64,000 nt of DNA. Origin: Anaerolineae bacterium (GTDB lineage: Bacteria; Chloroflexota; Anaerolineae; Aggregatilineales; Phototrophicaceae). Below, piece after piece: positions 29,327-31,317 of the stretch (positions are counted from its first letter, which is position 1; each line of letters opens with the position of its first letter). Below the pieces are notes generated by a model. That model saw nothing but the letters and a program-made list of their open reading frames with translations, ran no database searches and was not told the origin of the DNA. The DNA lies in the NCBI GenBank assembly GCA_022820125.1, contig JAJEGA010000014.1, forward strand, positions 18,567 through 82,566, given 5' to 3'. A program made the translations under genes and the position numbers.

Positions 29327-29356
29327 TTGACCAAAGGCGCAACACTCGTCTACAAT
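29327..29356 (+). promoter_or_regulatory. Putative promoter of rplU-rpmA-rpmE (TTGACC-N18-TACAAT), followed by a ~115-nt leader
   Basis: TTGACC at 29327-29332 and TACAAT at 29351-29356. The leader contains the imperfect hairpin CCGCAGATAGAGCC...GGCCTCTGTTGCGG. Confidence 0.5.
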
Positions 29357-29471: not shown

Positions 29472-29783
29472 ATGTACGCAATCATACGCAGCGGCGGCAA
29501 ACAATATCGAGCGGAGGTCGGCGCGACCATTGATGTAGATCGCTTGCCGCAACAAGTTGGCGAATCGATAGAAATCGCGGACGTTCTGCTAATCGCGGAC
29601 GGCGATGAGACGCGCATCGGGCAGCCGCAGGTCGATGGCGCCTCAGTCTCGGCTACCGTAGTAGACCAATTCCGCGGCAAAAAGATCATCGTATACAAAT
29701 ATCGTCAGCGCACGAATTACCGCCGCAAACAGGGGCACCGCCAGTATTATACGCGGCTGCGGATTGAGGACATCCGGGCTTAA
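29472..29783 (+). CDS. rplU: 50S ribosomal protein L21
   Basis: [13 protein letters not shown]...; 103 aa after trimming. Confidence 0.95.
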
Positions 29784-29807: not shown

Positions 29808-30095
29808 ATGGCACACAAAAAGGGCGGCGGCTCGTCAAGCAACGGGCGCGACAGCAACTCGAAGCGCCTCGGCGTCAAGAATTATGGCGGCCAATTTGTC
29901 ATCCCCGGCAACATTATCGTGCGGCAGCGCGGCAGCAGGTTTCACCCGGGCGCGGGCGTCAGCATGGGCAAGGATTATACCATCTTCGCCACCAGAGCCG
30001 GATTCGTAACCTTTGAAAAGATGCGCGGTCGCAAAGGACAGCAACAGATTTCCGTTTACGAATCGCATGAAAAGACTGGGCAGACTATCAATTGA
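29808..30095 (+). CDS. rpmA: 50S ribosomal protein L27
   Basis: [24 protein letters not shown]. Confidence 0.95.
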
Positions 30096-30153
30096 TCCAG
30101 CGGCATAAGTCATTTGCGCTACTCAAAAGAGCCGCAAATGCGCGGAGGAACCC

Positions 30154-30612
30154 ATGAGAGAAGGCATCCACCCCGTATGGCACGAGACGCCGGTGCGCTG
30201 CATGACCTGCGGCTCCACCTGGACGACAGGTTCGACCGTCGAATCGCTGACGGTTGAAATCTGTTCCAACTGCCATCCCTTCTATACCGGCGAACAGCGT
30301 ATCGTCGATACCGAAGGGCGCGTCGACAAATTCATGAAACGCTTGCAGCAGCGCGACGAGATCCGCACCGCGCTCGACAATGCCGCCGCTGAGCGCACAC
30401 CGCTCGATCTCCCAATCGCCGAACTCGATATCGACGCGCGCTACAGCAATATCCTCGAAGACAACAACATCACCATCGTATCCGATGTGCTGGATCGCTT
30501 GGGCGACGAAGATGACGAAAACAGCATTCTGACGATTGCGGGCATCGGGCGCAAAGTTGTTAGCGACATGAAGAAGAACCTACGCGCCCGCGGCTACCAG
30601 CTCAACAGCTAA
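30154..30612 (+). CDS. rpmE: 50S ribosomal protein L31 (Zn-ribbon type) fused in frame to an ~80-aa C-terminal domain resembling the RNA polymerase alpha CTD
   Basis: Residues 1-68 are L31 (IHP, CxxC...Cxx[16 protein letters not shown]). Residues ~85-150 match the alpha-CTD helix-hairpin-helix pattern ([23 protein letters not shown] ... [26 protein letters not shown]). Confidence 0.8.
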
Positions 30613-30633: not shown

Positions 30634-30669
30634 CAACAGCCAATATGGAGTTTGGCTGTTGCGGGTTTT
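30634..30669 (+). terminator. Rho-independent terminator after rpmE
   Basis: 10-bp stem CAACAGCCAA / TTGGCTGTTG, 8-nt loop, then CGGGTTTT. Confidence 0.65.
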
Positions 30670-30735: not shown

Positions 30736-31317
30736 ATGAAGCATCACTCGGGTCGCATTGAAGTCATTAGCGGCAGCATGTTCTGCGGCAAGACGGAAGA
30801 GTTGATCCGCCGACTGCGCCGCGCGATCATCGCCCGGCAGAAAGTTAAGGTCTTCAAGCCGGAAATCGATGACCGCTATGGCATTCAGCGCATCACCAGC
30901 CATTCGGGCCAATCCGTCGACGCGATACCGGTCAAAGAGTCGCGAGACATCCTCGAGCAAGCGAACGGCGAAACCACCGTTGTCGCCATTGACGAAGCGC
31001 AGTTCTTTGATGCCGGCATCGTCTCCGTGGCGCAGAGCCTGGCGGATGAATGCGGCATTCGAGTGATCATCGCCGGGCTGGATACCGACTTCCGCGGCCA
31101 GCCTTTCGGCGCCATGCCTCACCTGCTGAGCATCGCCGAAGAGGTGACCAAACTGCAAGCGATCTGCGTGGTCTGTGGCGATGCCGCCAGCCGAACGCAA
31201 CGCCTGGTGGACGGCCGCCCGGCCGCCTTGGACGACCCGATCATTTTGGTCGGCGCGCAAGAGTCTTATGAAGCGCGCTGCCGCAAGCACCACCAAGTGC
31301 TGCCCGCCAACAACTAG
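30736..31317 (+). CDS. tdk: Thymidine kinase
   Basis: [15 protein letters not shown]-loop, IDEAQFF, and a C-terminal Zn site CVVCG...CRKHH. Trimmed to the ATG at 30736. Confidence 0.9.

Follow-up and report, generated by a model that had tools for sequence, protein, structure and literature searches.

Why should a ribosomal protein end in a domain that resembles part of RNA polymerase (RNAP)? The question is raised by rpmE, the gene for ribosomal protein L31 (bL31), in a stretch of 64,000 nucleotides from an Anaerolineae bacterium of the Chloroflexota (GenBank assembly GCA_022820125.1, contig JAJEGA010000014.1, positions 18,567 to 82,566; this whole analysed stretch is referred to as the window). 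An earlier note on this DNA, drawn from its letters alone, described the gene as L31 fused in frame to a domain like the C-terminal domain of the RNAP α subunit (α-CTD; the subunit itself is RpoA), and suggested that such a protein would be an unusual physical link between the ribosome and either DNA or the transcription machinery. The appended domain (the tail) proves to be a homologue of the α-CTD that is retained across part of the class Anaerolineae, and its closest relatives are C-terminal modules of NusA in the same class.

Identity of the tail

The 152-residue product of rpmE is read in frame through L31 and the extension, with no internal stop and with the translation that had been quoted. 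In the extension, the Pfam family RNA_pol_A_CTD (PF03118) matches residues 79–144 at 24.2 bits when the whole protein is searched and at 26.3 bits when the tail is searched alone (cut-off 23.8), and several NCBIfam rpoA models match the tail as well (expect value, E, 1e-6 to 1e-5). As a single sequence the tail has weak matches to α-CTDs in the PDB (E 0.05–0.3), whereas a profile of 23 family tails matches ~50 distinct RpoA chains there (best E 1e-10) and has no significant PDB match besides RpoA chains. PF03118 is matched by each of the 23 tails individually (best E 1.5e-11); the family HHH_5 (PF14520), matched in five of the 23, scores more weakly than PF03118.

Predicted structures agree with the profiles. 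The full-length AlphaFold model (predicted local distance difference test score, pLDDT, 74) comprises the L31 β-strands, a long helix (residues 56–80) and a four-helix C-terminal domain, and the neighbours of its C-terminal half are α-CTDs (1DOQ, template modeling score normalized to the target, TMt, 0.74; 3K4G_B, root-mean-square deviation, rmsd, 1.8 Å over 69 columns). When the tail is modeled alone (pLDDT 88.1; predicted template modeling score, pTM, 0.72), its top 50 Foldseek neighbours in the PDB are all α-CTDs (score normalized to the query, TMq, 0.74–0.79; ~2 Å rmsd; ~69 columns), and NusA AR structures are absent from those 50. The resemblance claimed in the earlier note is thus upheld by a Pfam match above the gathering cut-off, by PF03118 matches in all of the family tails and by superposition of the predicted fold, and the tail can be regarded with solid confidence as a true homologue of the α-CTD. 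A generic helix-hairpin-helix (HhH) domain or a domain of the NusA AR type was considered as its identity and ruled out by the Pfam, PDB profile and fold searches. The genome contains exactly two PF03118 domains, one in a genuine RpoA encoded elsewhere (342 residues with its own CTD; 74.7 bits) and one in the rpmE tail (25.1 bits); judged by sequence, the tail is an α-CTD-derived paralogue and no subunit of RNAP.

The N-terminal part of the protein is a complete L31. Ribosomal_L31 (PF01197) matches residues 1–64 at 98.5 bits (cut-off 27), and the models TIGR00105 (93.5 bits, cut-off 38.35) and NF000612 (96.4 bits, cut-off 70) span residues 1–64/68. The core is matched by bL31 chains in the PDB (E 2e-19), and the Foldseek neighbours of the N-terminal half of the full-length model are ribosome-bound bL31 chains. 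C16, C19, C37 and C40 form a zinc motif (CxxC...CxxC) whose four cysteines are near-invariant among members of the fusion family; Ardenticatenaceae-type members lack them. All of the zinc cysteines are lost and the tail is kept (a C-minus L31 core) in L017 (genome G276, family f14), L051 (an Ardenticatenaceae metagenome-assembled genome, MAG) and P0126.

The protein is labelled in the database as '50S ribosomal protein L31', and its precomputed Pfam annotation has both domains; full-text literature searches and reviews yielded no published description of an L31/α-CTD fusion. The pairing of bL31 with an α-CTD is therefore already present in database annotation, and what is new is that NusA carries modules of the same family.

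Authenticity, selection and distribution

A fusion of this kind could be an artefact or a functionless read-through, with L31 run into an unrelated downstream open reading frame (ORF) through faulty sequencing or assembly or through the recent loss of a stop. The earlier note had held a missed stop to be unlikely, and the lengths of L31 orthologues in relatives remove that concern: of 41 genomes from the genus and order, 40 have the full-length frame intact and keep the fusion length (44–92% identity). The 150–160-residue architecture recurs in dozens of independent assemblies, single-contig genomes included, and reading frame and domain are retained in distant members at ~37–50% identity, across which the linker varies in sequence and keeps its length. 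The genome holds only this L31, the query's second match there being RpoA. Among 14 species of the genus, at a dS of ~1.1, the L31 core has a median ratio of nonsynonymous to synonymous substitution rates (dN/dS) of 0.037, compared with 0.126 in the linker and 0.124 in the α-CTD-like domain; because dN/dS of the tail is ~0.12, the substitution pattern indicates that it is under purifying selection. An artefactual origin is accordingly given a vanishingly small probability, and sequencing error and a missed stop are ruled out by the conservation across genomes, the single L31 copy and dN/dS.

In a survey of the Chloroflexota (301 genomes), full-length matches were found in the window's class only, and other classes matched the L31 core alone. 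The class survey placed the fusion in 57 of 301 genomes, belonging to the window's order and to families f9, f10, f14, f88, f91, f97, f119, f120 and f127; in families f113 and f124 it is present in part of the members. Among the matches listed, at least 21 named loci are full length, all from Anaerolineae MAGs (labelled Anaerolineales, Anaerolineaceae or Ardenticatenaceae), and a search of 1.84 billion representative proteins yielded just a few full-length clusters when grouped at 50% identity. The fusion is likely to be confined to part of the class Anaerolineae and to be absent outside the Chloroflexota.

Origin of the tail and its divergence from RpoA

The tail is 33% identical to the CTD of the genome's own RpoA (E 1e-9). 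When 48 L31 tails were aligned with 30 RpoA CTDs, a 3-residue insertion was seen in all of the class RpoA CTDs and all of the tails. It lies between E. coli positions 284 and 285 and is absent from E. coli and from other Chloroflexota classes; the NusA modules of the class have the same spacing. This insertion falls between the two hairpins (RpoA loci L113 and L116–L141 compared with L140 and L142–L145), and in the window's genus two further inserted residues extend it to an acidic stretch, GDEDDENS, beside the second hairpin. The tails form a single clade (100/100) in a maximum-likelihood tree; its stem is long (0.65), and it groups with the RpoA CTDs of fusion-bearing lineages (87/78). Because the class-specific insertion is carried by the tails, their sequences indicate that the module arose within the class Anaerolineae from an α-CTD of the Anaerolineae type. 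A recent plain copy of the 3′ end of rpoA, unchanged in function, is ruled out by the long stem and by systematic changes at residues that are invariant in RpoA.

These changes were followed, in E. coli numbering, across the 48 tails and 26 RpoA CTDs of the class. E258, R265, N268, K271, R272, R293, N294, G296, K298, S299 and E302 are invariant in all 26 RpoA CTDs. The tails keep R265 (44/48), G296 (46/48) and K298 (40/48), for which the window protein has R96, G132 and K134. They have lost K271, R272 and R293, N294 has become G in 47 of the 48, and E297 has become R or Q; position 268 is variable (D in 14, N in 9, T in 8; N99 in the window protein), and S299 is S in 17. The tails have gained K304 (47/48), K/R305 (48/48) and R/K308 (48/48), equivalent to K140, K141 and R144 of the window protein, which make the last helix basic. 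The net charge of the second hairpin and last helix is +4.5 in main-clade tails vs. −0.1 in RpoA, and that of the first half of the domain is −3.9 vs. −0.3; the net charge of the whole domain is ~0 in the tails.

UP-element DNA is bound by the α-CTD through the '265 determinant' (R265, N268, C269, G296, K298 and S299). Because N268, N294 and other residues are lost and a basic helix is gained, it is unlikely that canonical UP-element reading is conserved in the tails; the alignment points instead to a new basic surface that is fixed in place of the UP-element residues. The structural side of the earlier note's interpretation, a domain of the α-CTD type, stands, whereas its suggestion of UP-element reading is weakened by the family-wide loss of N268, K271, R272, R293 and N294.

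The same residues bear on the idea that the tail is a free nucleic-acid tether, which would bind DNA or nascent mRNA and hold the ribosome at the nucleoid or the transcript with no protein partner. Binding to nucleic-acid backbones irrespective of sequence is a property of HhH motifs, the equivalents of R265, G296 and K298 are widely kept, an asparagine is present at the N268 position of the window protein, and L31 has independently gained an HhH domain of another kind (DUF4332, in P0150) and, in family f108, a basic tail rich in lysine and alanine. However, the asparagine at position 268, present in 26/26 RpoA CTDs of the class, is found in 9/48 tails, the other four losses named above affect the whole family, the window's genus has an acidic insert beside the second hairpin, and the domain as a whole is close to neutral. 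A tether of this sort is quite improbable.

Relationship to the C-terminal modules of NusA

The NusA proteins of the class were examined because the E. coli α-CTD docks on NusA AR2. They are 516 to >628 residues long, vs. ~394–441 residues in other classes, and C-terminal extensions of 150–300 residues were seen at loci L146–L159 and L167–L170; the NusA gene of the window's genome (locus L157; G000:C113:9588-11069, minus strand) lies outside the window. In seven of seven sampled fusion-bearing genomes the extension consists of a helical segment and a two-hairpin, (HhH)2, module, and in three genomes RNA_pol_A_CTD (PF03118) is called in that module (37.0, 25.6, and 22.8 bits). Many families of the class have one such module on NusA, and f95 has two.

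A tree of 83 domains was built from L31 tails, NusA modules, RpoA CTDs and the modules of P0202, a stand-alone protein of the class that has two of them. L31 tails, NusA modules and both P0202 modules form one clade (100/93), apart from the RpoA CTDs. The main-clade L31 tails are monophyletic (98/97); three further tail subtypes (f97, f113, and f120/f124), which have a NusA-like 'G[FI]GPK' hairpin or variants of it and no basic helix, interleave with NusA modules, and the f113 tails nearly reproduce the modules of P0202. A single clade of L31 tails is not rejected by the approximately unbiased (AU) test (p = 0.11). The tree indicates that the L31 tail is paralogous to the C-terminal modules of NusA in the class.

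Two observations concern the wider family of modules. A basic end motif, KKKGRxL(V/I)FDEELGxVVAKRRRKPGR...W.D, is shared by P0202 and many of the NusA proteins of loci L148, L152, L154, L158, L169, and L170, and acidic low-complexity sequence lies N-terminal to it. Proteins P0139, P0145, P0179, P0201, and P0228 (592–1313 residues) consist of 6–11 tandem α-CTD-like repeats; in P0139 seven stretches match PF03118 (164 bits in total).

Possible roles of the tail

In solved ribosomes, bL31 rests with its N-terminal domain on 5S ribosomal RNA (rRNA) and uL5. The C-terminal part of the protein crosses over to touch uS13, uS14, uS19, and h42 and follows the movement of the 30S head, and the final residues are important for the association of the subunits (PMC7530986). 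Because the C-terminal segment rides on these elements, the tail would be tethered at the top of the 30S head, beside the central protuberance. In the E. coli transcription-translation complex TTC-B, NusA AR2 binds the α-CTD and NusA bridges RNAP and the 30S subunit (bioRxiv 10.1101/2020.03.01.972380). By analogy, the tail may be a flexible docking module between a ribosome engaged in translation and the transcription elongation complex, where it would bind the acidic C-terminal module of NusA and/or the α-CTD of RpoA, much as the E. coli α-CTD binds AR2, and the outcome would be an additional, lineage-specific tether between ribosome and RNAP. A link to transcription gains support because the closest paralogues of the tail are the NusA C-terminal modules, and we infer from this analogy that the tail may connect the two machineries. 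That it does so as a tethered module contacting NusA and/or RpoA on the elongation complex is the most likely of the roles considered here, yet is proposed tentatively, with slightly less to be said for it than against it. Rather doubtful is the broader notion that Anaerolineae may have built a coupling device from duplicated α-CTD modules, with one copy on RNAP-bound NusA and another on bL31 at the 30S head that would dock on each other or on the α-CTDs of RNAP; such a device would provide a ribosome–RNAP tether independent of the NusG-uS10 bridge of E. coli.

Co-occurrence and charge bear on a partnership between tail and NusA module. With a module profile run over the 301 class genomes, the NusA module was found in 45 of the 57 fusion genomes. 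The NusA modules of fusion genomes are more acidic than those of other genomes (mean charge −4.7 vs. −2.5; Mann-Whitney p 2e-5, kinship ignored) and have a lower α-CTD consensus score (median 43 vs. 57.5 bits). Two readings fit acidic, diverged NusA modules: co-evolution with the basic L31 tail through complementary charge, or a transfer of the function from NusA to L31.

Several points tell against docking on the elongation complex. In coupled complexes of E. coli, RNAP is located close to where mRNA enters the 30S subunit and is separated from the C terminus of bL31 by tens of angstroms, so that any contact would hinge on flexible linkers. In the family to which the window's genome belongs, the NusA module has degenerated (hidden Markov model score ~0–7 bits), which a hand-over to L31 fits at least as well as a partnership. 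The fusion occurs without the NusA module in f97 and f120, and the module without the fusion in f12, f85, and f95, the last of which has two tandem copies; tail and module are thus associated, neither strictly requiring the other, and obligate pairing is ruled out as a strict rule. The contrasts in charge and divergence ignore phylogeny and mostly mirror a few clades. Extensions of ribosomal proteins usually bind rRNA, as do most lineage-specific ones, and the unrelated low-complexity extensions of L31 in other Anaerolineae families suggest that its C terminus is simply a permissive site.

The last two points also favor a structural extension internal to the ribosome, in which the tail would bind rRNA or head proteins (for instance h41, h42, or h33 of 16S rRNA, or 5S rRNA) and have no role in transcription. 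This is the main rival to docking on the elongation complex. The C-terminal segment of bL31 already touches h42, uS13, uS14, and uS19 (PMC7530986), main-clade tails have an invariant basic stripe suited to a phosphate backbone (the equivalents of R/Q297, K298, K304, K305, and R308), and the C terminus of L31 has accepted varied additions in other families of the Anaerolineae and, in another lineage, DUF4332. A structural role nevertheless leaves unexplained why the closest paralogues are on NusA and why modules were apparently exchanged between NusA-like proteins and L31. The f97, f113, and f120 tail subtypes are retained though they lack the basic stripe, the domain has an acidic first half, with a mean net charge of −3.9, and the long, charged, helical linker is more like a tether than like a packed extension. 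We consider this account somewhat unlikely, and the same holds for its suggested consequence, that the tail would strengthen bridge B1c or restrict movement of the 30S head.

Genomic context of rpmE

The features of the locus are collected in Table 1. The gene order rplU-rpmA-rpmE given in the earlier note is borne out by Pfam matches to Ribosomal_L21p, Ribosomal_L27, and Ribosomal_L31. Adjacency of rpmA and rpmE was found in every Chloroflexota locus examined; because it is the same with and without the fusion, the tail was added to a gene that kept its place. Downstream of rpmE, tdk follows in 18 of the 21 named fusion loci among the matches listed, and the remaining three loci stop short of that point.

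Table 1. Coordinates of features at the rpmE locus (window positions).
Feature	Position	Strand	Evidence
Promoter-like site TTGACC-18-TACAAT, 5′ of rplU	29327..29356	+	Consensus scan, 10/12 positions match; consensus match only
rplU (bL21)	29472..29783	+	Pfam Ribosomal_L21p, 134 bits
rpmA (bL27)	29808..30095	+	Pfam Ribosomal_L27, 122 bits
rpmE fusion gene (bL31 + linker + α-CTD-like domain, 152 residues)	30154..30612	+	ORF without internal stop; stop codon 30610-30612
bL31 core, residues 1-65, zinc type	30154..30348	+	PF01197, TIGR00105, NF000612
Charged linker, residues 66-85	30349..30408	+	Predicted continuation of helix 56-80 (AlphaFold)
α-CTD-like (HhH)2 domain, residues 86-150	30409..30603	+	PF03118, PDB profile search, fold search
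Hairpin, 10-bp stem 30634-30643 / 30652-30661, then U run 30666-30669	30634..30669	+	RNA fold; probable terminator
tdk (thymidine kinase), 3′ neighbour	30736..31317	+	Pfam TK, 180 bits

The terminator after rpmE had been called clean. A hairpin is indeed present there (folding free energy, dG, of the 71-nucleotide stretch −28.9 kcal/mol, z −2.9), but the adjective overstates the case: the U run consists of four U, and a consensus terminator scan of the region did not flag this hairpin. A second, small GC-rich hairpin (the GCCGCAAATGCGCGG region, window positions 30126–30147) lies between rpmA and rpmE, directly 5′ of the rpmE ribosome-binding site GGAGGA, and was flagged by the scan as terminator-like on the minus strand. 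Because the leader of E. coli rpmE mediates autoregulation of the gene (PMC7297116), this hairpin could by analogy be a leader structure.

Other C-terminal extensions of L31

Further additions to L31 were met. L31 proteins of family f108 (L230, L231, and L234; 280–303 residues in total) continue into acidic proline/valine-rich repeats and then a lysine/alanine-rich tail like that of histone H1, those of family f110 (L232 and L233; 247–295 residues) carry acidic 'DETVT' repeats, and P0150 (240 residues), from the search of representative proteins, is an independent fusion of L31 to the HhH-containing DUF4332 (137.8 bits). In the class Anaerolineae, the C terminus of bL31 seems to be a preferred place for added sequence.

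Comparison with known systems

To our knowledge, transcription-translation coupling has been detailed structurally for few models, namely E. coli (NusG-uS10 and NusA) and Mycoplasma (NusA). In the fusion, a protein of the ribosomal subunit interface bears a domain derived from the docking module of RNAP, and NusA of the lineage bears modules of that family too. If the Anaerolineae modules interact, they would constitute a third, independently evolved coupling architecture and a clear case of domain transfer from the transcription machinery onto the ribosome; even if the tail binds rRNA only, an α-CTD fold would have been re-used as a ribosomal element, at a C terminus that has acquired domains repeatedly.

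Measured against canonical bL31 of type A (E. coli RpmE and T. thermophilus L31; PF01197), the window protein has a complete bL31 in residues 1–65 with its CxxC...CxxC motif, adjoins rpmA, is the sole copy in the genome and matches ribosome-bound L31 in its predicted fold. Canonical bL31, however, stops at ~66–75 residues, whereas the window protein runs ~85 residues further, through a linker and a folded domain. The DUF4332 fusion and the f108 and f110 extensions occupy the same C-terminal position as the tail, and DUF4332 also has HhH motifs, but the appended sequences are unrelated, and only the α-CTD-like type is paralogous to NusA modules.

The α-CTD of RpoA (PF03118; PDB 3K4G, 1LB2, and 1DOQ) has the same two-HhH fold as the tail and is likewise borne on a linker at the C terminus of its host protein; in RpoA it follows the N-terminal assembly domain of α, in the fusion a ribosomal protein. 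The tail keeps the fold core and the equivalents of R265, G296, and K298 and differs from the RpoA domain in the family-wide loss of N268, K271, R272, R293, and N294, in the changed residue at E297, in its basic last helix and acidic first half, and in forming a separate clade on a long stem.

NusA of E. coli offers a functional parallel, in that AR1/AR2 (AR2 binds the α-CTD; PDB 2JZB) are tethered C-terminal (HhH)2 modules on a factor that acts at the interface of transcription and translation. Anaerolineae NusA proteins also end in (HhH)2 modules, and it is to those that the L31 tail is most closely related. AR1/AR2 belong to the HHH_5 family, whereas PF03118 is the family matched by the NusA modules and L31 tails of Anaerolineae; because of that match, and since no AR structure appears among the top 50 fold neighbours of the tail, the Anaerolineae modules are best regarded as paralogues of the α-CTD and not as orthologues of the E. 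coli ARs.

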